From the IMG/VR virus record IMGVR_UViG_3300033150_001117: DNA of 20,000 bases; one strand, written 5' to 3'. Origin of the DNA: an uncultured virus (IMG/VR IMGVR_UViG_3300033150_001117). Taxonomy: Duplodnaviria; Heunggongvirae; Uroviricota; Caudoviricetes. Of this stretch, positions 3,594-20,000 are shown one piece after another. Below the pieces are notes generated by a model. It was given only the letters and a program-made list of their open reading frames with translations. It searched no databases and was not told the DNA's origin. The stretch's first letter is position 1. Every line of letters starts with the position of its first letter. Position numbers and translations under genes: made by a program.

Positions 3594-3985
3594 AGATTCG
3601 CTCCCGTCCTTCCAGGCACTTCTCGCAGGCGGCTAATTTCCTCGGCCTGCCAAAGGATTGCGTAACGCATCGCCAGGTCGAGGGTCTCGCTGCCGTCGCC
3701 CGGCAGCGGCGGTAAATCCGTCTCGCGTATGATCCTCACCGTGCTGTGCACGAGAGCCGACATCTCAGCCATTGTTGTCTTCTCTGACAGCCGCTCGCCC
3801 TCGGTTATGGTGGCATCCCGGACCTGTTCGGGTTGCGGCCACAACGACGGATGCACGATCTTACGAAGTTGTTCCAGCAGATGCTCAGCAAACCCCGTCC
3901 CGGGGTGCTTGGCTGCCTCGTCGCTGATCAACGAAATCACGGTTTCGACGGCCTCGCGTGCCGCGACGTTCTGTTCTGTGCTCAC
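3581..3985 (-). CDS. Hypothetical protein
   Basis: 134 aa helical ORF, GTGA-coupled to the recT stop. Confidence 0.6.
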   Translation of the reverse strand: MSTEQNVAAREAVETVISLISDEAAKHPGTGFAEHLLEQLRKIVHPSLWPQPEQVRDATITEGERLSEKTTMAEMSALVHSTVRIIRETDLPPLPGDGSETLDLAMRYAILWQAEEISRLREVPGRTGANLARR

Positions 3986-4779
3986 GCCCCGTCCCCTTCG
4001 TCCATTGATGCCAGGTCGATCGTTTTATCACCAGCCGGCGGCGGCAGCAGATCCACCCCGAGGTCCTGTGGCTCGCCGAGTTCGGCTTGCTCTTCCAGGC
4101 GTAAGGCCAGGGACAATTCCGTCGTCAGCCGCCAATAATTTGCCGCGGCCCGTACCGGCGTCTTACGGACCATCGCCGGGTAGTGCTCTCCCTTCCACAG
4201 CGGGCCGCCTCGCTTCTCGACTTCGTCGATCTCCGCCCTCGACATGTACCTGTGGGCCAGCCCGCCGCCGGCCGTCTCGTAGAGGCAATACGCCCCAACC
4301 AGCCGATCCCTCACGGCCTTGGCCGTCAGCGCTCGCCCGGGCGGCACTGAGTGCTGGACCACCGGCCGCGAGTCCCGCACGCCGACGAAGAACTCTTCTC
4401 CCTGCAGCACCAGGTCGGCGTAGACCCACCGCAGGTAGTTGTTTCGCGTAGCCAGGTTGATGTAGCCCTGGTAGCTGATCTCCAGGTTGCATCGGGCCTT
4501 CGGATCGGATCGCCGCAGCTTGCGAGGGACGAAGTAGGCGAGCTTCATCATCCGGCCAGGCACCAGGCCGATCATCGCCGCGTGGGCCGCCGAGACCAGG
4601 ACGGACTCCGGCGTGCACGATCCCTCCTTGAGTTCGTTGGCCGCGACGACGACGGCCGCCGCGAACTGCTGCCGGTCGATCGCCCCCGTGTTCAACAGGG
4701 GCACGATACGGTCGAGTTCCTTCGAGACGTACTTTGCCAGCTCGTTGCGAGCCGCCGGCAGGATTAGCTCGGGTCCCAT
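3982..4779 (-). CDS. recT: RecT-family ssDNA annealing recombinase
   Basis: Motifs AYFVP, LEISYQGYINLA, VGAY, YMSRAEID and W...YPAMVRKTPVRAAANYW; immediately downstream of an exonuclease gene. Confidence 0.9.
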   Translation of the reverse strand: MGPELILPAARNELAKYVSKELDRIVPLLNTGAIDRQQFAAAVVVAANELKEGSCTPESVLVSAAHAAMIGLVPGRMMKLAYFVPRKLRRSDPKARCNLEISYQGYINLATRNNYLRWVYADLVLQGEEFFVGVRDSRPVVQHSVPPGRALTAKAVRDRLVGAYCLYETAGGGLAHRYMSRAEIDEVEKRGGPLWKGEHYPAMVRKTPVRAAANYWRLTTELSLALRLEEQAELGEPQDLGVDLLPPPAGDKTIDLASMDEGDGA

Positions 4780-4780
4780 A

Positions 4781-5746
4781 TCACGTTCCTTCTGGTCGTT
4801 GTTTCGCCCACCAAGGCAGGCCGCCGCGGTGAATGGTCGGGTACGCCCCCGGCCACTGATTCGTGTCCGTCGCTACTGCAAACAACGCAAGTAGCCGTCG
4901 ATATTTCAGCCTCCCCATGTCTAATGTTTCCGTGTCCGCTTGTACACAATTTACATCGTGCGGCCAAGAGTCCTCGATAGCGAGCCAGACGAACTGCCGC
5001 TCGATGCCGTCCGCCGCCTTGAGCCCGTCGAGGTAGAGGGCGGCCTGGGTGTCGTAATGCCGCTCCTCGATCGAGCGGGCGAACGCCGCGTCACAGTGCT
5101 TGCCCCGCCGCACCTTCTTTAGATCCACGCAGCACGGCGGGATCGACTTCGGCTGCGGGATGTCCTTGTCCACGCGGCCCTTCATGCGGATCACCGCCTG
5201 CCGCTCCTGGCCCTGCGCGACGTAGCTCACCGGCTGGTCCCAGACGAACGAACGCTCGACGCCGCCTTGGGCCTTGAGCAGCTTGACCGCCGGGTGCTGC
5301 TGTATCTCAGCAGCGAGGTTCTCGATGGCATCCGCCTGCAAGGCCGTGATGGTCCCCGGCGGCCGCTCGGCCCACTCCGGGGCGTGCGTGCCGCAGTACC
5401 AGTGGCCGTCGAAACGCTTGATCGCCTGGTAGCTGCACGGCTGCCCCTTGCTCTCGCCGGATTGGAGCACGGCGTGGCACTGCCCGGCAATCGGGTGCCG
5501 CTCGGCGAACTTTGCCGGCTCAAGGAGTCTCGTGTGCATCGCCCAGCCGAAGTCGATGTCCTTGGACTCCGGCTCCTCGATCTTGCCGTCCAGGTACGCC
5601 TTCAGGTGTTTCATCGATACCGTGCCGTCATCGAGCAACGCCTTGGCAAGCGTGCTGTTGTTCAGGTGTGGCCATGCGAGATATTCGTTGAACGGCACTC
5701 CCGGGTAGACGCCCGGCGGCGGCTCGGCTGTCGGTGGCTGAATCAT
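4781..5746 (-). CDS. RecE/exonuclease VIII-like PD-(D/E)XK nuclease (DUF3799-like)
   Basis: PGVYPGVPFNEY, FGWAMH..LLEP, KGRVD, VDLK, YDTQAALYLDG and WPG.Y motifs; AAGGAGGGG RBS; paired with recT. Confidence 0.85.
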   Translation of the reverse strand: MIQPPTAEPPPGVYPGVPFNEYLAWPHLNNSTLAKALLDDGTVSMKHLKAYLDGKIEEPESKDIDFGWAMHTRLLEPAKFAERHPIAGQCHAVLQSGESKGQPCSYQAIKRFDGHWYCGTHAPEWAERPPGTITALQADAIENLAAEIQQHPAVKLLKAQGGVERSFVWDQPVSYVAQGQERQAVIRMKGRVDKDIPQPKSIPPCCVDLKKVRRGKHCDAAFARSIEERHYDTQAALYLDGLKAADGIERQFVWLAIEDSWPHDVNCVQADTETLDMGRLKYRRLLALFAVATDTNQWPGAYPTIHRGGLPWWAKQRPEGT

Positions 5747-8306: not shown

Positions 8307-10214
8307 CTAACGCCAGCCCAGGATGCGGCAGCCGTACTGTTTGGATTGTATCGCCAGATCGTATCCGCCGCGGCGGAATATCGCTCCCTCATCCGTGCGC
8401 TCAGCGATTTCAGGAAACGTCGATTCTTTAGTCGTCTTGTAGGCGACCCAGTCCTGCCCCTCCCGTCTGATGCGGCACTCGACGCCGGCCGGCACCGTGT
8501 AGACGATCTCCAGGTCGCGGAACCCGCATGGCCGGCCACGCCGCTTGGCCATCCACCGGCGCTTGCCGTCCTCAGGCAGGAACGACCAGCCACCCGGCCG
8601 CGTGGCGAGGTGCGTCATCACGTCGCTAGCCTCGGCCAGCGACATCTCCGGATCGAAGCCGCGGCTCCGCAGGATGCGCATCTGCTTGTAGCTGCTGCGG
8701 CCCTCGCGGGACCGCCTGGCCGACTCCGCGAGGAGCTGCCTGGCCTGGGTGTAGCTCAAACCCTTGTCCGGAATGCCGAGCTCCTTGAGTTTGGCCACCT
8801 GATCGTCGTCCGGCGGCAGGCCGCGCCACCAGGCCGGCGACGCCTCCTCGACGAAGCCGACCGCATCGGCGAAGATCACGAACGGGTCGATGGTCTTCCG
8901 CGTGGCCTTGGCCTCGGCGATTACCTTGGCTCGGGCGGCCGCCCGTATGTCGGCGGCCTGCGCCTTGACCGCCAGCACCTCTTCCAGCACGTCGGCCGGT
9001 GTGTCCCCCGCGGCGGCGAACACGCGGGCAGCCGCCTCGTCCCGCAGTTCGGCATCCAACTTCCCGCCGAGCAGATCGGCCGTGGTTGCCAGCTTGTGCT
9101 TGAGCGACGCGCCCACGAGATCAATTACCAGGCAGTCGGTTTTGCCCTCCACCGGAGCCAGCGGCCCGCCCCGCAGGCCTCGCCCGACCATCTGTGCGAG
9201 GAGCATCCGGCTGAGCGTGGGCCTGGCAATCACGATCGCCGATACGGCCGGGAAGTCGGTGCCTTCCAAGAAGACGCCGCAGTTGACCAGCGTTTGGAAC
9301 TCCCGCCGCCGGAACGCCTCGACAATCGCCCGGCGCTCCTCGTCCTTGGTCCCTCCCGACACCCACCGCACGCCCCTGTCCGTGTAGCGAGGCAGAATCT
9401 CCGCGACAAGCTGGGCGACGCGAACGGTCGGCGTGAAGACCAGCGTCTGCCGATCCCCGATCATCGGAACCACCGGGGCCACAATCTTGTGTATCGCCTC
9501 TTCCTGCCCAATTACCGCTTCCAGATCCTCTGCAGACAGGTCGCCGCTGCCCGTCTTGCGGACCTCCGACCAGTCGAGATCGTCTAGCCGGACGTACTGC
9601 TGCTTGACCGGGGCGAGCCAGCCGTCCCGGATACCGTCGATCAGCTCGTAGTGGTACGCAACGTTGTCGAAGAATGTGCCGAGGGGGATCTCGTCCGCAC
9701 GATCAGTGGTAGCGGTAATTCCACATACCTTTGCCGGCTGGAAATAGCCAAGGACTGTCTGGTACGACTCCGCCACAGCATGGTGGCACTCGTCGAGAAT
9801 CACGAAGCCGTGAGCGTCCGGCGCGAACTGCTCGCGCCGGTTCTCTCTCAGCATCGTCTGGATCGAGGCCACGACCACGGCTCGGCCGGCCATCGACGGC
9901 TGCCTGGCAATCGACCGCTCGCCCTTCTCGATGGCTGCCGGTTCGCCGGTGAAATGCTCGCACGCCTCGGCCGCCTGCTCGATCAGCTCGTCGCGGTGGG
10001 CGAGCCAGAGCACGCGCGGAGGCAGCCCGAAGTCTGAGGCCAGGTCGTAGTTGCACCACGCGTCGGCCAGGTACGCGCCGAGGATAGTCTTGCCGGTGCC
10101 GCACGGCATGGAGACCAGCAGGCGATCGTGTTGCCGGAGCTTGGTGCACACCGCGTGCACCGCCTCGTTCTGGTAGGCGCGGAGTTCGATCATGCCAGGT
10201 ACTTGTTCCCGCAT
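8307..10214 (-). CDS. Superfamily 2 DExH helicase (ResIII/IRC3/YejH-like)
   Basis: Q motif LRAYQ, Walker A MPCGTGKT, LAHRDEL, DECHH, GITAT, FLEGTD and QMVGRGLR. Confidence 0.92.
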   Translation of the reverse strand: MREQVPGMIELRAYQNEAVHAVCTKLRQHDRLLVSMPCGTGKTILGAYLADAWCNYDLASDFGLPPRVLWLAHRDELIEQAAEACEHFTGEPAAIEKGERSIARQPSMAGRAVVVASIQTMLRENRREQFAPDAHGFVILDECHHAVAESYQTVLGYFQPAKVCGITATTDRADEIPLGTFFDNVAYHYELIDGIRDGWLAPVKQQYVRLDDLDWSEVRKTGSGDLSAEDLEAVIGQEEAIHKIVAPVVPMIGDRQTLVFTPTVRVAQLVAEILPRYTDRGVRWVSGGTKDEERRAIVEAFRRREFQTLVNCGVFLEGTDFPAVSAIVIARPTLSRMLLAQMVGRGLRGGPLAPVEGKTDCLVIDLVGASLKHKLATTADLLGGKLDAELRDEAAARVFAAAGDTPADVLEEVLAVKAQAADIRAAARAKVIAEAKATRKTIDPFVIFADAVGFVEEASPAWWRGLPPDDDQVAKLKELGIPDKGLSYTQARQLLAESARRSREGRSSYKQMRILRSRGFDPEMSLAEASDVMTHLATRPGGWSFLPEDGKRRWMAKRRGRPCGFRDLEIVYTVPAGVECRIRREGQDWVAYKTTKESTFPEIAERTDEGAIFRRGGYDLAIQSKQYGCRILGWR

Positions 10215-10224
10215 CGAGGTCTTG

Positions 10225-10479
10225 TCATTTTTCAGTAATCGCCCTTGCTATTCCAACCAGGATGACGCCGAGTACTTGGCACGGCACGTAGACCCAGTAT
10301 AGGACCCAGGTCCAGACTGGCATTTCATTTGCGTTCAGTACCATGAACAGCAGGATGAGCCATATTGGAGTTGTGATTAGAAGGTTCCACATAACACACA
10401 GGCAACCGATCGTCTGTTTTCGGACATTTTGATTATTTGTCATCTTCAATTTCTTCCTTCGTTTATTTGGCCGTTTCAT
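10225..10479 (-). CDS. Small two-helix membrane protein
   Basis: Basic N-terminus and two hydrophobic segments; ATGA-coupled to the upstream gene. Confidence 0.65.
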   Translation of the reverse strand: MKRPNKRRKKLKMTNNQNVRKQTIGCLCVMWNLLITTPIWLILLFMVLNANEMPVWTWVLYWVYVPCQVLGVILVGIARAITEK

Positions 10480-11384
10480 GCCAGGTACTTCGCCTCGTAC
10501 CGCGGTTTCGTCAGCCAGCCTTTCCCGCTACAACGGTCGCAGGAGGCCCGCAGCTTCCCTGCCTCCCGGCACTCCGGGCAAACGACGTGCGGCATCGCGT
10601 CTCGGACGTGCTTGCGAATCTCGTTCACCCAGCCGGCTATGACCTTGGGCTCGATCCCTTCGCCCGCCCCGCTGGGCAGCTTTGCCAGCCGCTCAGCAGG
10701 CTCGATCACGGCCTCTGAGAGGCCGTCCCAATAGCCGACGATCCCCAGGCGGTCGACGAACACCTGGCGGCACCAGCCCGGCACTTCGTCGTCGAGCTTA
10801 TCGAAAACCGGCTCGCCCAACTTGGGTGCCCCCTTCTTCTTCCGGCCGCCTTTCCCCCCTATCGCCGAGGTCTCCAGTACCTGGCCGGTCTTTGCCCGGC
10901 GGCGCTTGCCTGCTTTGCCTGGCTTGCCGGGTCCGCTTAATAATTTATTAAGAGCCGCCCGGCGCTTCTGGACCATCGAGGTGCTGACGCCGCAGAGCTC
11001 GCCTATCACGCCATCCGTGTTTTCGGCACATTCTTTGTCGGCCAGGCAGTTCTCGACGGCCCGCTTCTTCTCTGCGTTGGTCAAGCGGACCCCGTGTTCG
11101 CGGTTGGCGCCGCTGGCATAGAAGATCGCCTCGCTCCGGGTGCCTTTCCGGACGTCGCAGACTGGCTCTTCGACGCCGATCCGCTTGAGTGCGGCCAGCC
11201 TTTTCACCCCGTCGGCCAACCAGTTGTCTTTGCCGTCGAAGAATACTACCGGGGGAGGCATCGCTTTCTGGTCGAGGCGAAGGGTGTCCGCATACTCGGC
11301 CACGACCGGATCGTCGTCCTGAATCCGAGGCAGGACGCTCGGGTCGATCTCGACCGCATTGACGGGCAACTTCATTTTCGGCAT
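10476..11384 (-). CDS. ParB/Srx N-terminal domain protein with HTH and C-terminal Cys4 finger
   Basis: PPPVVFFDG...LADGVKRLAA, AN..HGVRLT..EK, IGELCGVSTSMV (HTH) and CPEC...CDRC; GGAGGT before ATG 11384. Confidence 0.8.
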   Translation of the reverse strand: MPKMKLPVNAVEIDPSVLPRIQDDDPVVAEYADTLRLDQKAMPPPVVFFDGKDNWLADGVKRLAALKRIGVEEPVCDVRKGTRSEAIFYASGANREHGVRLTNAEKKRAVENCLADKECAENTDGVIGELCGVSTSMVQKRRAALNKLLSGPGKPGKAGKRRRAKTGQVLETSAIGGKGGRKKKGAPKLGEPVFDKLDDEVPGWCRQVFVDRLGIVGYWDGLSEAVIEPAERLAKLPSGAGEGIEPKVIAGWVNEIRKHVRDAMPHVVCPECREAGKLRASCDRCSGKGWLTKPRYEAKYLA

Positions 11385-11425
11385 CGGTCCACCTCCGTTT
11401 CGGGTGCCTTGACTACGGTACACAT

Positions 11426-15740: not shown

Positions 15741-16220
15741 ATGCTACCTGTAATGACCAGCCGCCAAGTCCGCAATGGCCAGTTGCGCGTGATGGGCGTG
15801 CAGCCGACGGCGTCCTACCACACGTCGGTCGGCCCCGGTGACGAGGTGGCCGTGCAGGAGGTCCGGCGCGAGCCGTTTCGGGCGGAGCGATTCTACGCTC
15901 GTGTGATTGCAGTGATAGACCACGGCTGCTACAAGCTCGTCAGCTACGAGCGAATCGAGGGCGGCAAGACTGGCGTGGCCCGCGTATTTGCCGCCGGCCC
16001 GCCGGATTGGGGCGTGATCGAGTTCCGGGTGATCCGTAAGGTTCACCGGCCGCTGCCTTCGCGGCAGGATCGCGGCGGCCCGCTATCGTCGCCGGATAAC
16101 CCCGTTGTGCGGCTGGCCAAGCCGGGGCGATGCCCGGTGTGCCGTCGGCTGTACGAGTGGCGGCCTCGCATGGGCTGGCCGTGCCTGGAGTGCCGAAGAC
16201 AAGAGGAGAACGAGCCGTGA
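15741..16220 (+). CDS. Hypothetical protein with C-terminal CxxC..CxxC zinc ribbon
   Basis: TAAGGAGG RBS; CPVC...CLEC. Confidence 0.7.
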   Translation: MLPVMTSRQVRNGQLRVMGVQPTASYHTSVGPGDEVAVQEVRREPFRAERFYARVIAVIDHGCYKLVSYERIEGGKTGVARVFAAGPPDWGVIEFRVIRKVHRPLPSRQDRGGPLSSPDNPVVRLAKPGRCPVCRRLYEWRPRMGWPCLECRRQEENEP

Positions 16221-16963
16221 AGGTATACAACACCACAAAGTACCCCAATTATTTCTTGCGGCGCATGGTTGCATGGTGCTGCCGGGAGATCGGGCTGCCG
16301 CTGAGACATGTTCGGGAGGCAACGTTCCGCAAGGGCGGGCGGTACCATCCGCGAGGTATTGCGGCATCGGGGCGCGCCTATTTCAACAGCGGACGGATCG
16401 TAGTCACGCACGGCTGTGCTGAGCCGATTTTTATCGACTACCAACAACGGAATGTAGCGCAGGTCAATAAAAGCCACGGGACGAACTGCCGCGATCCAGT
16501 GAACGTCGGAGGCCGAATCGTAGAGCGAGAGCAGGCAGCAGACCTGTTGCAACAGGAAAGGAGCGAGGGCGAGAGAGCTGTGCTTGACAGTTTGGTCAGC
16601 ACAACGGCCCACGAGCTGGTGCACCTGTGGTTCTACCACCAGGTCTCGATGACGCGGCGTGGCCGCCGGTCGGGCGGCTCCGAACGAGAGACATGCTGGC
16701 ACGAGAGGCAAGTGATGAAGAAATTCAGGGCCAGCCGCGACGAACTGCTCACTGCCTGGGGGAAGGAGCCGATGAAGAGGGCCGTGAAACCAAGGGTATC
16801 GCTCCAAGAGAAACGGGCCCAGGCGGCCAGGAAGAAACTCGCCGAGTGGACGCGGAAGCAACGGCTCGCCGCAACGAAGGTCAAGCAGTACAAGGCGAAG
16901 GTTCGCTACTACGATCGGGCAATGGCTGCGAAGAAAAGGGGGGCAAGTGATGAGTCTGATTGA
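16217..16963 (+). CDS. HExxH zincin (SprT-like) metallopeptidase-domain protein with basic coiled tail
   Basis: SGRAY strand, TTAHELVHL and downstream SE; GTGA-coupled start at 16217 with GAGGAG RBS. Confidence 0.7.
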   Translation: MKVYNTTKYPNYFLRRMVAWCCREIGLPLRHVREATFRKGGRYHPRGIAASGRAYFNSGRIVVTHGCAEPIFIDYQQRNVAQVNKSHGTNCRDPVNVGGRIVEREQAADLLQQERSEGERAVLDSLVSTTAHELVHLWFYHQVSMTRRGRRSGGSERETCWHERQVMKKFRASRDELLTAWGKEPMKRAVKPRVSLQEKRAQAARKKLAEWTRKQRLAATKVKQYKAKVRYYDRAMAAKKRGASDESD

Positions 16964-18503
16964 ACAACTGAGGCACGCCCGCCGGGTATCGGTGCCGCTC
17001 GTGGCGGTGCAGACGCCCGACCCGGCGGCCACGATGCAAACGATCGCCGCGTCGGACCTCAACGGCAAGCCCCCGCCGATCGTGGCGTGGGACATCGTGA
17101 GGGGCTGCCGACCGATCAATCTTGCCGGCAAGGAAGTCGCCGCGATCGACGGCGAGGACTCGATCGGGAATCCCGTCGCCTTCCTGGAGGCGGCCGTGAA
17201 GTTCCCGCCCCGGACGATCGCGTTCGTCTGCAACGCGCAGGAGTGCATGGACGCGCCTGTGTTCAGGCAAGGCGTCTGGAACCTCCGCGACCAGTTCAAG
17301 CGTGACCGGCGGATGCTCGTGCTATTGGCGCCGTCACTGGAGCTGCCGCCGTCGCTCAAGGATGATGTGGTGATGTTCGACGAACCGTTACCCGACGCGG
17401 AGGCCCTGGCTCGGATCGTGCGTGAGCAGGACGAGGCTGCCAATATCTGCTCGACCTGCGGCGGCAACGGCACGGATGCCGGGCTGGAGTGCGAAGAGTG
17501 CCACGGCTCGGGCAAGAGCAACCGCAAGTCAGCCGACGAGGGGACGGTCGCCCGGGCGGTCGCCGCAACGCAGGGCCTCTCAGCGTTCGCTGCCGAGCAA
17601 GCTGTGGCCATGTCCCTGCGCCCCGGCGGGATCGATCTCGACCACCTCTGGGAGAGCAAGCGGCAGCAGATCGAGCAGACGCCGGGCCTGTCGGTCTGGC
17701 GGGGCGGTGAGACGTTCGCCGATGTGTGCGGTTTAGCGCACGTGAAGAAGTTCCTTGGGCGGGTGCTCACGGGCAACCGTAAGCCTGACGCGGTATGCTG
17801 GGTGGACGAATTGGAGAAGATGGTCGCCGGCAGCGATGGGCAGTTCTCGGACTCCTCCGGCGTCTCGCAGGGAATCCTGCAGGCCCTGCTGACACACATG
17901 CAGGACCACGAGGCCCGCGGCCTGATCCTGCTCGGTCCCCCGGGAACCGGCAAGTCGCTACTGGCGAAGGCGACCGGCGGCGAGGCTGGCGTGCCGACGA
18001 TCGCATGGGACAGCAACGCGATGAAGGCCTCGCTGGTCGGTCAAAGCGAGGGCAACGTCAGGTCGGCATTAAAGGTGGTCTCAGCCGTGAGCGGCGACCG
18101 CTGCCTCTGGATCGCCACCTGCAACTCGGTCAGCGGCATCCCCACGGCGCTGCGGCGAAGGTTCGGCTACGGGATGTACTTCGTCGATCTCCCGGACTCG
18201 CAAGAGCGGAGCGCCATCTGGCGGTACTACCTGGCGCGACACGGATTCAGCCCAAAGAAAACAGAACTGCCGGCGGACGATGGCTGGACTGGGGCGGAGA
18301 TCCGCACGTGCTGCGAGCTGGCGTCCGACCTGAATTGCAAGCTCAGCGAGACGGCGGCTTACATCGTCCCTGTAGCCCTGGCCATGCCGGACGAGATCCA
18401 GGACCTCCGGAAGGAGGCGGACGGCAAGTACATGTCGGCCAGCCGCCCGTCAGTGTACCGCGCTCGCGGCGACGAGGCGCGTGGCCGGGACATCTGTGTA
18501 TAA
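16950..18503 (+). CDS. Ycf46-like AAA+ ATPase with permuted motif order and CxxCxGxG zinc-finger insert
   Basis: Degenerate N-terminal ATPase-like domain (LELPPSLKDDVVMFDEPLPD), GPPGTGKS, LVGQSE, IATCN, LRRRF, FVDLPD..ER..IW and GWTGAEI. Confidence 0.88.
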   Translation: MSLIEQLRHARRVSVPLVAVQTPDPAATMQTIAASDLNGKPPPIVAWDIVRGCRPINLAGKEVAAIDGEDSIGNPVAFLEAAVKFPPRTIAFVCNAQECMDAPVFRQGVWNLRDQFKRDRRMLVLLAPSLELPPSLKDDVVMFDEPLPDAEALARIVREQDEAANICSTCGGNGTDAGLECEECHGSGKSNRKSADEGTVARAVAATQGLSAFAAEQAVAMSLRPGGIDLDHLWESKRQQIEQTPGLSVWRGGETFADVCGLAHVKKFLGRVLTGNRKPDAVCWVDELEKMVAGSDGQFSDSSGVSQGILQALLTHMQDHEARGLILLGPPGTGKSLLAKATGGEAGVPTIAWDSNAMKASLVGQSEGNVRSALKVVSAVSGDRCLWIATCNSVSGIPTALRRRFGYGMYFVDLPDSQERSAIWRYYLARHGFSPKKTELPADDGWTGAEIRTCCELASDLNCKLSETAAYIVPVALAMPDEIQDLRKEADGKYMSASRPSVYRARGDEARGRDICV

Positions 18504-18514
18504 TGGAGGGTACA

Positions 18515-19423
18515 ATGAACGCTTCGCACAATCAGACGATGGCAGAGGCCATTCAGTCGGGCACCGTCATCTTGGAGGTGATCTTCCACAAGCCGGGAAT
18601 GACCCGCAGGGGCGACCTCGGCAAGGTCGAGACGGCCGCGGATAAAAACCAGCTTGGCCTGTCGAAAAAGATAATCAACTCGCCGGAGTACCGGGCGGTG
18701 CTGCACGTGGCCAAGGCCTGTCGGGAGTACCTCAAGGCCCTGGAGCTGGAGGCCCCATTCAAGACGGGGCGGCACCTCCTGCCGCTAAAGTTATTGCAGA
18801 AGGCGTACAGTCGCGTGGAGGAGGCCGAGACGGCCTACTCGGAGGCGGCGGACGCTTTCGTGGCCGTCTACCCGGCCCAGATCGAAATGGCCAAGGCGTC
18901 GCTGGCCGACCAGTTCGACCCGGCCGACTATCCCGACGCCGCCGAACTTCGCAAGCAGTTCTGGGTCGAGCGGCGGGTGTCGAGCTGGGACACGCCCGGC
19001 GAGGCGAAGATCGGCGAGTACCTGTACGAGCGGGAGTCGGCGCGCGTGGCGGAGGAGCTGTCGAGCGTTGCCGAGGACGCTAAGTTCGCCCTGCGTGAGG
19101 GGCTGCGGGGGCTGGCTACGGGGCTGGCGGAGAGCCTCGGCGAGCGGCCGGACGGCAAGCGAAGGCGGCTGAGCGCGTCGACGCTGGCGAAGGTCAGCGA
19201 CTGGCTGGCTTCCTTCGACGCCCGCAACGTATTGGGCGACTCGGAGCTGGCCGCCGTGGTGACGGACCTGCGGAGCGTCATCAACGGCCGCGGCCTCACG
19301 GAACTACGGACCAACGACGGCATGAGGGCGGCTGTGAAGGCCGAGCTGGAGAGGGCGGGCAAGACGCTGGACGACTTGCTGGTCGACGCGCCGGCGAGGG
19401 CAATTAGCTTCGGGGACGATTGA
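18515..19423 (+). CDS. DUF3150-like helical protein
   Basis: GGAGG before ATG 18515; G.HLLP, F...YP and FDPADYP pattern; adjacent to the AAA ATPase. The track ORF extension to 17795 is spurious. Confidence 0.6.
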   Translation: MNASHNQTMAEAIQSGTVILEVIFHKPGMTRRGDLGKVETAADKNQLGLSKKIINSPEYRAVLHVAKACREYLKALELEAPFKTGRHLLPLKLLQKAYSRVEEAETAYSEAADAFVAVYPAQIEMAKASLADQFDPADYPDAAELRKQFWVERRVSSWDTPGEAKIGEYLYERESARVAEELSSVAEDAKFALREGLRGLATGLAESLGERPDGKRRRLSASTLAKVSDWLASFDARNVLGDSELAAVVTDLRSVINGRGLTELRTNDGMRAAVKAELERAGKTLDDLLVDAPARAISFGDD

Positions 19424-19424
19424 A

Positions 19425-20000
19425 ATGGCTGAGACTACAGAACCATCGATTCGGTTCGTGGCCGAAGAAGTCCGGGCGACTTTGGCCAAGCGGAAGTCGC
19501 AGTTCCGGCGGGTGATCAAGCCGCAGCCGGATATCTCCCTTCTGAAGCCCGGTATCGTCCTAAAGGCCCATAAGTGCCCCGTGCTCGGCCCGTCGCACCA
19601 TGGTAAACGCGAGTGGGGTCTTTACGCTGAGCCCTTTGATCCGCGTAGCGTGCCCGCATTTGCCTACGATTGCCCCTACGGCCAAGTCGGGATGAAGCTG
19701 TGGGTCCGGGAGACTTGGGCCGAGGTTGAACTTGATGACGTTCAGGGCGACGTGATCTTCTGGAAGGCCACGGATGCGGCCCGCGAGATATCACCCGGCA
19801 TTACACTTGCCAAGTGGCGTCCCTCCATCCACATGCCCCGCTGGGCCTCTCGGATTCTCTTGGAGATCACGGGAATTCGCATGGAGAGGGTGCAAAGCAT
19901 CAGCGGAGAAGATTGCATCGCCGAAGGGTGCAAAAGTTGGAACGCGACATACTTGGACCTGCACTCCCCGATCCGGACGCCAGGGGACCATCTCTACGGG
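19425..20000 (+). CDS. Phage ASCH/PUA-like protein, truncated by window end
   Basis: Not in the ORF track. Reads MAETTEPSIRFVAEEVRATLAKRKSQFRRVIKPQP...CPYGQVGMKLWVRETW...WRPSIHMPRWASRILLEITGIRMERVQSISGEDCIAEG. Confidence 0.85.
   Translation, partial: MAETTEPSIRFVAEEVRATLAKRKSQFRRVIKPQPDISLLKPGIVLKAHKCPVLGPSHHGKREWGLYAEPFDPRSVPAFAYDCPYGQVGMKLWVRETWAEVELDDVQGDVIFWKATDAAREISPGITLAKWRPSIHMPRWASRILLEITGIRMERVQSISGEDCIAEGCKSWNATYLDLHSPIRTPGDHLYG

Follow-up and report, generated by a model that had tools for sequence, protein, structure and literature searches.

A phage-borne family of Ycf46-like AAA ATPases with the Walker B segment encoded ahead of Walker A

Introduction

The AAA core is among the most studied enzyme folds and is usually described with one fixed order of motifs. 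In Ycf46-like ATPases of phages and mobile elements, such as EVC24_084 of Rhizobium phage RHph_I4, gp65 of Aeromonas phage HJ05 and Javan368_0002 of a Streptococcus satellite phage, the P-loop (starting at residues 303, 298 and 277, respectively) is followed by the Walker B motif (residues 358, 353 and 332). Here we describe an AAA ATPase encoded by a 20,000-nucleotide stretch of DNA of an uncultured virus of the class Caudoviricetes (IMG/VR record IMGVR_UViG_3300033150_001117), hereafter referred to as the window. In this protein the chain runs from Walker B through Walker A to sensor 1 instead of following the classic AAA order, and the same arrangement was found in all family members examined.

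Motif permutation is known for another group of P-loop NTPases. In the available text of PMC2430557 and other reports, the GTPases YlqF, YawG and RsgA are described with the motif order G4-G5-G1-G2-G3, and cpRAS with G3-G4-G5-G1-G2. The principle therefore has a precedent, though in a different class and in the form of a whole-domain permutation. A literature search, which did not extend to subscription journals, has found no paper describing a Walker B-first AAA order in general or in phage Ycf46 proteins; the only permutation in the available part of PMC7824862 concerns methylases and is irrelevant to the swap described here.

We consider it highly probable that the window protein is a phage-borne, Ycf46-like, two-module classic AAA ATPase in which the active C-terminal module has been rewired, most likely once in evolution, while retaining the usual fold; it would presumably work as a ring-shaped remodeller.

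Results

Order of the catalytic segments in the window ATPase

The ATPase gene is an intact open reading frame (ORF). ATG at 16950 is a likelier start than GTG at 16947, because a purine-rich AAAAGGGGGG run is located just upstream of it and a 98% identical protein (P0002) begins there; the product would then have 517 amino acids. Residue numbers used below are counted from GTG 16947. The gene includes the following parts:

16947..18503, plus strand: whole gene of the two-module AAA ATPase, according to the ORF list and translation (518 codons from GTG 16947, stop codon TAA at 18501-18503)
16947..17696, plus strand: N-terminal AAA-like module without Walker motifs, consisting of an alpha/beta core and a helical lid (residues 1-250)
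17448..17501, plus strand: zinc-ribbon-like CxxC...CxxC insert (CSTC...CEEC) in the lid of the N-terminal module (residues 168-185)
17715..17774, plus strand: entry helix of the active module (FADVCGL...VLTG; residues 257-276, helix 264-275 in the model)
17778..17912, plus strand: relocated segment (residues 278-322) made of the Walker B strand AVCWVDELEK (residues 282-291), a loop and the helix SGVSQGILQALLTHMQD (residues 304-320)
17913..18098, plus strand: Walker A segment with beta1, P-loop, alpha1, beta2, pore loop and alpha2 (residues 323-384)
18099..18191, plus strand: sensor-1 strand, arginine-finger helix and strand beta5 (strands 386-392 and 410-412 in the model)
18192..18431, plus strand: helical lid of the active module (helices 418-431, 449-462 and 481-491 in the model; aligned to the lid of p97 D2)

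A preliminary description of this DNA, made from the letters alone, had placed the Walker B segment ahead of Walker A within one reading frame, and its coordinates for both motifs are correct, apart from the start of a longer string around the P-loop. The catalytic DE pair of the relocated segment (D287/E288) is encoded at 17805-17810 and the P-loop GPPGTGKS at 17934-17957 (residues 330-337; the longer string GLILLGPPGTGKS starts at 17919). These are followed by the pore-loop stretch MKASLVGQSE (18021-18050, residues 359-368), the sensor-1 strand CLWIATCN (18102-18125, residues 386-393, including N393) and the arginine-finger stretch LRRRF (18150-18164, residues 402-406). A motif scan has found no hhhhDE motif between the P-loop and sensor 1, in agreement with the earlier remark that no second DE precedes CLWIATCN. 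The sole other DE-like match in the protein, MPDEI (residues 477-481), is located inside the C-terminal helices.

The protein clearly belongs to the AAA family (Pfam AAA, PF00004: 57.3 bits against a cut-off of 21.2, E 3e-15). The match falls in two stretches, the best of which spans only positions 1-53 of the 131 positions of the profile. As profile annotation sees just half of the domain, such proteins can easily be misread as truncated or inactive. The best sequence matches in PDB belong to the p97/VCP, Cdc48, Rix7 and AFG2 group (E about 5e-15). In a phmmer comparison with Cdc48 (6oaa_B), query residues 323-375 align to 521-573 and query residues 282-325 to 582-625, so that the two matches come in reversed order; taken alone, the second is weak (i-Evalue 30). 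The Walker A segment aligns to both 248-302 and 521-573 of Cdc48.

BLASTP of the window ATPase against the RHph_I4 and Javan368 proteins was discarded as a test of block order: it forced the alignments to be collinear and read the Walker B block of these proteins as a gap. Since BLASTP is incapable of showing a swap, segment profiles were used. They were built from the family alignment (A1) for the N-terminal part, block C (residues 278-322, Walker B), block B (residues 323-384, Walker A) and block D (residues 385-420, sensor 1), with the search space set to one. In the three normal-order proteins from RHph_I4, HJ05 and Javan368, block C matches behind the P-loop with per-sequence E-values of 1e-9 to 7e-14: block B is located at 271-355 and block C at 331-392. 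Overall, the blocks match these relatives at E 1e-7 to 1e-23. The preliminary description had foreseen split, out-of-order matches to normal AAA or Ycf46-like proteins, and this is what was obtained.

The N-terminal module is common to the swapped family and the normal-order proteins: the family N-domain profile matches all three of them (E 1e-10 to 4e-15), so they are whole-length relatives rather than generic AAA proteins. The entry helix corresponds to the DVGGL...LK.WL stretch of the normal-order relatives and is collinear with DVGGLENLKDWL in the BLASTP alignments. Further common blocks include DSxGVSQ..L..LLT.MQ after Walker B, the S-L/Y-V-G-Q-S-E pore loop, ATxN of sensor 1 and the LRRxR arginines. 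Judged by these sequence comparisons, the window ATPase has its closest normal-order relatives among the Ycf46-like ATPases of phages that share its N-terminal domain. The Ycf46 kinship proposed earlier is also supported by name: P0356, a normal-order relative 83% identical to Javan368_0002, is called “Uncharacterized AAA domain-containing protein ycf46” in UniRef and “SpoVK/Ycf46/Vps4 family AAA+-type ATPase” by JGI.

Tblastn of the window ATPase against 50,697 phage records matched 12 of them. Only one contains a full-length relative, gp103 of Tunturiibacter phage Tunturi_3 (36% identity, 97% coverage), in which block C (280-320) precedes block B (323-382). The remaining records align from the P-loop onward and have extra length.

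Occurrence of the swapped order

In 427 out of 427 relatives examined, Walker B comes first and is followed by Walker A and then sensor 1. These relatives include 347 sequences from the protein and viral sets (267 proteins and 80 viral-contig ORFs), 79 ORFs from bacterial genome contigs and Tunturi_3 gp103. With the segment profiles, the block order C-B-D, each block being matched once, was registered in 347/347 and 79/79 sequences of the first two sets. This extends to the whole family the earlier remark that every catalytic part is present a single time. Counts of motifs by regular expressions missed some Walker motifs with unusual residues, and the profile-based counts are preferred.

The family is large. 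A word-indexed search yielded 1,476 proteins at E ≤ 0.001, the best 120 of which are all near full length and 45-98% identical to the window protein. An exhaustive profile search yielded 29,280 proteins at E ≤ 0.001, of which 3,372 reached E ≤ 1e-30; the best 150 matches were inspected. Relatives of the window ATPase are encoded by 273 viral contigs and by at least 485 loci in species-representative genomes. Of the genome loci, 80 were kept for analysis; they come mostly from Acidobacteriota, the others being from Nitrospirota (including the chromosome of Nitrospira moscoviensis), Planctomycetota, Armatimonadota, Myxococcota and Verrucomicrobiota. Homologues with the same order, which the preliminary description had suggested to look for, are therefore abundant, and by sequence the swapped order is characteristic of a large phage and prophage family. 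The CxxC...CxxC type of motif is a minority feature within it (20 out of 427 sequences); in the window protein this insert matches DnaJ_CXXCXGXG weakly, below the cut-off (E 0.0039).

Predicted fold and coevolution

The AlphaFold2 model built on alignment A1 has a mean predicted local distance difference test (pLDDT) score of 95.0 and a predicted template modelling (pTM) score of 0.88. The active module of the model contains five strands (282-286, 324-329, 351-354, 386-392 and 410-412); the DE strand has to be included to reach this number, which is usual for an AAA core. The relocated block (strand 282-286 and helix 306-320) is modelled at pLDDT 82-96. Taken as a whole, the model aligns to AAA proteins with two tiers, of the p97/Cdc48 D1-D2 type (7lmz_C of p97: Z 19.1, 405 residues, root-mean-square deviation (rmsd) 5.4), so the N-terminal part is itself AAA-shaped. 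The C-terminal module aligns to p97 D2 (3cf0_A) with Z 16.4, rmsd 2.4 and 25% identity over 202 residues from the model span 246-495; about 50 residues of the module stay unaligned, as would be expected of a sequential aligner if one block had been relocated.

Residue contacts were also assessed by mean-field direct-coupling analysis of 399 unique family sequences (effective number 281) over residues 250-470, in which 23,220 pairs separated by at least six residues were scored. Three pairs connecting the DE strand with the sensor-1 strand region, D281-R385, C284-W388 and D287-T391, have a constant offset of 104; together with L289-A390 they occupy ranks from 14 to 44. The top 100 pairs include five between these two strands, where 0.43 would be expected (p 7e-5). 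The relocated helix is coupled to alpha2 (G309-E368, H317-S379, H321-S379 and A313-V371; ranks 5, 8, 9 and 27) and to alpha4 (L311-P399, rank 2), and the entry helix coevolves with helix alpha1 and strand beta5. Known neighbours were recovered as well, e.g., beta1-beta5 (L328-V413, rank 20).

The strands of an AAA sheet are arranged in the order 5-1-4-3-2. The couplings fit such a sheet if the relocated strand takes the place of beta3. A structural check of the DE strand had been proposed in the preliminary description; both the parallel register of coevolving pairs and the confident model place this strand beside the sensor-1 strand in the same sheet. By coevolution and the model, the usual three-dimensional fold seems to be kept: the DE strand adjoins the sensor-1 strand, and the DE helix packs on alpha2.

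Conservation of the catalytic site

Conservation was counted over the 399 family sequences. K336, E288, N393, R405 and G333 are invariant, and position 337 is Ser or Thr in all 399; D287 is kept in 394 and R404 in 374 of them. In the window protein, the P-loop GPPGTGKS fits the textbook GxxxxGK[ST] and the Walker B strand VCWVDE fits hhhhDE, while the sensor-1 Asn and the arginine finger are present. The lid of classic AAA proteins carries a G-x-S-G-A-D-I stretch; in its place the window protein has GWTGAEI (18282-18302), and G449 is kept in 394 out of 399 sequences. Pore loops of classic AAA proteins usually carry an aromatic residue; the corresponding position of the swapped family is Leu in 342 out of 399 sequences.

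Inteins were found in five family members, which are 653-896 amino acids long and contain Intein_splicing with LAGLIDADG or HNH domains. The insertions are located near profile position 309, i.e., the P-loop, in P0201 and P0243, and near position 368, i.e., the sensor-1 strand, in P0123, P0231 and P0244. Inteins typically occupy conserved functional sites. Their positions thus suggest a strong constraint on the P-loop and the sensor-1 strand, and fit these sites being essential.

Origin of the swap

An alignment of four normal-order relatives was used to fetch 63 viral loci. The order B-C-D was found in 58 of them and C-B-D in two; one more is cut at the contig end, one has block B only and one has a split block B. 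The split block belongs to a normal-order relative of 963 codons (L223:3102-5990), whose Walker A block is interrupted by some 400 inserted residues that may be another intein.

A tree was built by FastTree on 217 concatenated block columns. Out of 299 input ORFs and proteins, 103 contained each of the three blocks at a coverage of ≥ 70%, the excluded ones being mostly unrelated ORFs of the loci, and 99 unique sequences were kept. The 56 swapped and 43 normal-order sequences lie on opposite sides of one branch of this unrooted tree (support 0.996). As far as can be judged from sequences, a single rewiring of a normal-order Ycf46-like ancestor is the most likely origin.

Such permutations are usually reached by duplicating the B-C region and then losing the outer copies. 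We infer the same route for the ATPase swap, of which no relics were seen among the sequences examined: intermediates with two Walker B blocks were found neither in the 347 and 79 swapped-family sequences nor in the 63 loci fetched with normal-order relatives.

Companion and neighbouring genes

The window is phage-like, with predicted recombination and replication genes. As regards expression, words sampled from this DNA were almost absent from two metatranscriptome runs belonging to the same study. The genes considered here, apart from the ATPase, are:

18515..19423, plus strand: DUF3150-like companion gene directly downstream of the ATPase gene (302 amino acids)
3985-4779, minus strand: RecT gene
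4784-5746, minus strand: PDDEXK exonuclease VIII-like gene (DUF3799)
8310-10214, minus strand: SF2 helicase gene (ResIII and Helicase_C)
10479-11423, minus strand: weak ParB-like gene
19425-20000, plus strand: phrog_874 ORF (function not assigned in PHROGs; E 3.5e-42), which leaves the window at its end

The DUF3150-like gene is a conserved companion of the swapped ATPase. Its homologues were found by clustering in the fetched flanks of 77 out of 80 viral loci and by tblastn in 69 out of 80, mostly downstream of the ATPase gene and on the same strand. Pfam DUF3150 is matched by 23 out of 62 members of this protein family (best E 2.6e-11), and Atlas puts the companion among viral clusters with DUF3150 in 17-18% of members. 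A model of the protein has pLDDT 94.2; Foldseek has found no PDB match for it at E ≤ 0.001, and a wide VIA-align search returned generic helical bundles only, with the best Z of 9.3 below the value of about 13 required for helical proteins. Prediction of a complex between the ATPase (A1) and its DUF3150-like neighbour (A2) scored 0.01 against a mark of 0.32 and is uninformative either way. The literature search has found no phage function for DUF3150 or DUF1257.

In Tunturi_3, the DUF3150-like homologue is gp96 (L001:9696-10655; E 3e-83 to the family profile), encoded about 2 kb downstream of gp103; judging by this match, its annotation as “HNH endonuclease” is probably wrong. Neighbours of the normal-order relatives in three phage loci gave no match to the DUF3150-like profile.

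Smaller genes recur near the swapped ATPase as well. A weak DUF1257-like gene of 149 amino acids is present in 41 out of 80 loci (e.g., L005:5564-6013, downstream of the ATPase gene and past the end of the window; E 0.0021, under the cut-off); in the normal-order RHph_I4 a DUF1257 gene is located two genes after the ATPase. Genes for proteins of about 86-88 amino acids occur beside the ATPase gene in 36 out of 80 loci (e.g., L005:6218-6484, 88 amino acids, likewise downstream and past the end of the window) and genes for 109 amino acids in 32 out of 80. PADLOC and PHROGs offered no family for the DUF3150-like, 149-aa or 88-aa proteins. The phrog_874 ORF is outside the conserved module, since its homologue was found in only 2 of the 80 related loci. 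An upstream ORF of 277 amino acids has a weak partial match to GajA (AAA domain) in PADLOC (E 0.0046).

Two candidates were rejected. An antisense ORF of 657 codons (16043-18016, minus strand) is not a gene but a shadow frame of the G+C-rich DNA; comparable antisense ORFs form clusters in 74 out of 80 loci simply because the sense ATPase gene is conserved. The anti-phage ATPase IetA/IteA does not fit the window protein either: it scores 41.6 bits with NCBIfam IteA against a cut-off of 510, and the PADLOC IetA match is only partial (322-376, E 9e-12). No known defence family fits the window ATPase in the NCBIfam and PADLOC scans.

Discussion

A rewired module with the usual fold

The preliminary description suggested that the protein is a natural segment-permuted P-loop NTPase encoded by an intact ORF. 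Out-of-order homology, the family-wide order of segments, coevolution and the structural model all support this view. In the rewired module, a unit of about 45 residues consisting of the Walker B strand and helix is encoded before the unit of beta1, P-loop, beta2, pore loop and alpha2. The new connections would be those from alpha2 to beta4, from alpha3 to beta1 and from the entry helix to beta3. Each of them would shift by only one or two strand positions, which would explain why the swap is tolerated. As the chain would be moved so little, the ATP site may well be formed by the normal residues: K336/S337, D287/E288 and N393, plus R404/R405 of the neighbouring subunit. The protein is thus predicted to form a ring and to remodel other proteins at the expense of ATP. 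Presumably, its partner or substrate involves the DUF3150-like protein encoded nearby, with a role in early infection or replication, as gene context may suggest.

Several observations weigh against this interpretation. The DE strand is only weakly coupled to beta2 (best ranks 160-183 of 23,220), which leaves the sheet order with less support on the beta2 side, although these couplings still outrank those between beta2 and beta4 (428 and lower). The coevolution set is small and shares the family alignment with AlphaFold, hence the two are not fully independent. The blocks used for the tree were aligned to swapped-family profiles, and nesting of the swapped family inside the normal-order one cannot be read from the tree because it is unrooted. 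The window copy of the DUF3150-like protein matches no Pfam family. Finally, the glycine preceding the P-loop lysine (G335, 17949-17951) is Gly in just 166 out of 399 sequences, the others having Ala (191), Ser (26), Cys (10) or Thr (4), which is an unusual relaxation of GxxxxGK[ST]. Its loss in these relatives might mean altered nucleotide handling.

The replacement of this glycine, together with Leu in place of the usual aromatic residue of the pore loop, could be explained if the rewired fold were exactly as described above, yet the protein were a slow or switch-like nucleotide binder instead of a processive unfoldase. We regard this as improbable, though it is the most serious of the alternatives. 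If there were no hydrolysis, it would be difficult to account for the invariance of the Walker B glutamate, sensor 1 and the arginine finger. The normal-order proteins of RHph_I4 and HJ05 likewise have S-L-V-G at the pore loop, and the window protein itself has the textbook P-loop.

It is conceivable, with two AAA-shaped modules in the protein, that a Walker B of the first module is located just before the P-loop of the second one. The DE segment would then be a leftover or linker of the N-terminal module, and the C-terminal module, having lost its own Walker B, would be a pseudo-ATPase which binds ATP without hydrolysing it. Such an arrangement is quite unlikely. The segment is homologous to the Walker B of the second module and the SGVSQ...LLTHMQ helix of the normal-order relatives at the E-values given above for block C, and it coevolves with the sensor-1 strand of the C-terminal module in parallel register, as its helix does with alpha2. 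In the AlphaFold2 model the N-terminal module already closes with a helical lid of its own (residues 198-243), and E288 is invariant in the family. An artefact of sequencing or assembly, or a rearrangement private to this contig, is refuted by the same order in all 427 relatives from many assemblies, including the isolated phage Tunturi_3 and complete chromosomes such as that of Nitrospira moscoviensis, and by a separately assembled contig of 28,214 nucleotides from another public run, which covers 17400-18500 continuously and differs by 18 substitutions, with neither indels nor joints.

Significance

Returning to the rewired and active ATPase, we lean towards a wider scenario in which a single ancient event put the Walker B strand-helix unit before the P-loop unit, left a still working ATPase and was followed by its spread through phages of many bacterial phyla. 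In this scenario, the resulting topology of the AAA core, and of the additional strand, catalytic glutamate (ASCE) class as a whole, would be new to print, and the ATPase would be tied to an uncharacterised DUF3150-like partner in a joint phage function.

The existence of a large natural family which keeps the catalytic residues with the Walker B unit first indicates that the AAA fold tolerates an internal swap of blocks. The helix after Walker B normally runs into the sensor-1 strand, while in the swapped family it runs into the P-loop strand. The family therefore offers a natural test case for the relation of chain connectivity to folding, subunit communication and ATP-driven movement.

Comparison with known systems

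The window ATPase resembles its normal-order Ycf46-like relatives in being phage-borne, in its length (about 500-560 amino acids) and in having the same N-terminal AAA-like module. It differs from them in the order of the active module, which in these relatives runs from Walker A through Walker B to sensor 1.

As in the type II classic AAA proteins p97/VCP, Cdc48, Rix7 and AFG2, two AAA-shaped modules are stacked in the window protein, the C-terminal one resembling p97 D2. Unlike in p97-type proteins, the first module is devoid of Walker motifs, there is no p97-type N-domain, and the chain order of the active module is different.

Tunturi_3 gp103 (PP885686.1, annotated as “ATPase”) is a full-length swapped member from an isolated, cultivable phage-host pair. 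It lacks the CxxC insert of the window protein, and its record annotation is silent on the order. Tunturi_3 thus provides a cultivable system for studying the ATPase together with its conserved DUF3150-like companion.

The closest parallel in terms of principle is provided by the circularly permuted GTPases, which, in the available descriptions, also constitute a natural group of P-loop NTPases with a non-standard motif order and a retained fold. They serve as an analogy only, as no GTPase family turned up in the general Pfam and NCBIfam scans of the ATPase. The permuted GTPases, so far as these descriptions go, belong to another P-loop class and have undergone a circular permutation of the whole domain, with new termini. 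In the window family, two adjacent internal blocks of the AAA core are exchanged inside a longer protein, the flanks of which are unchanged.

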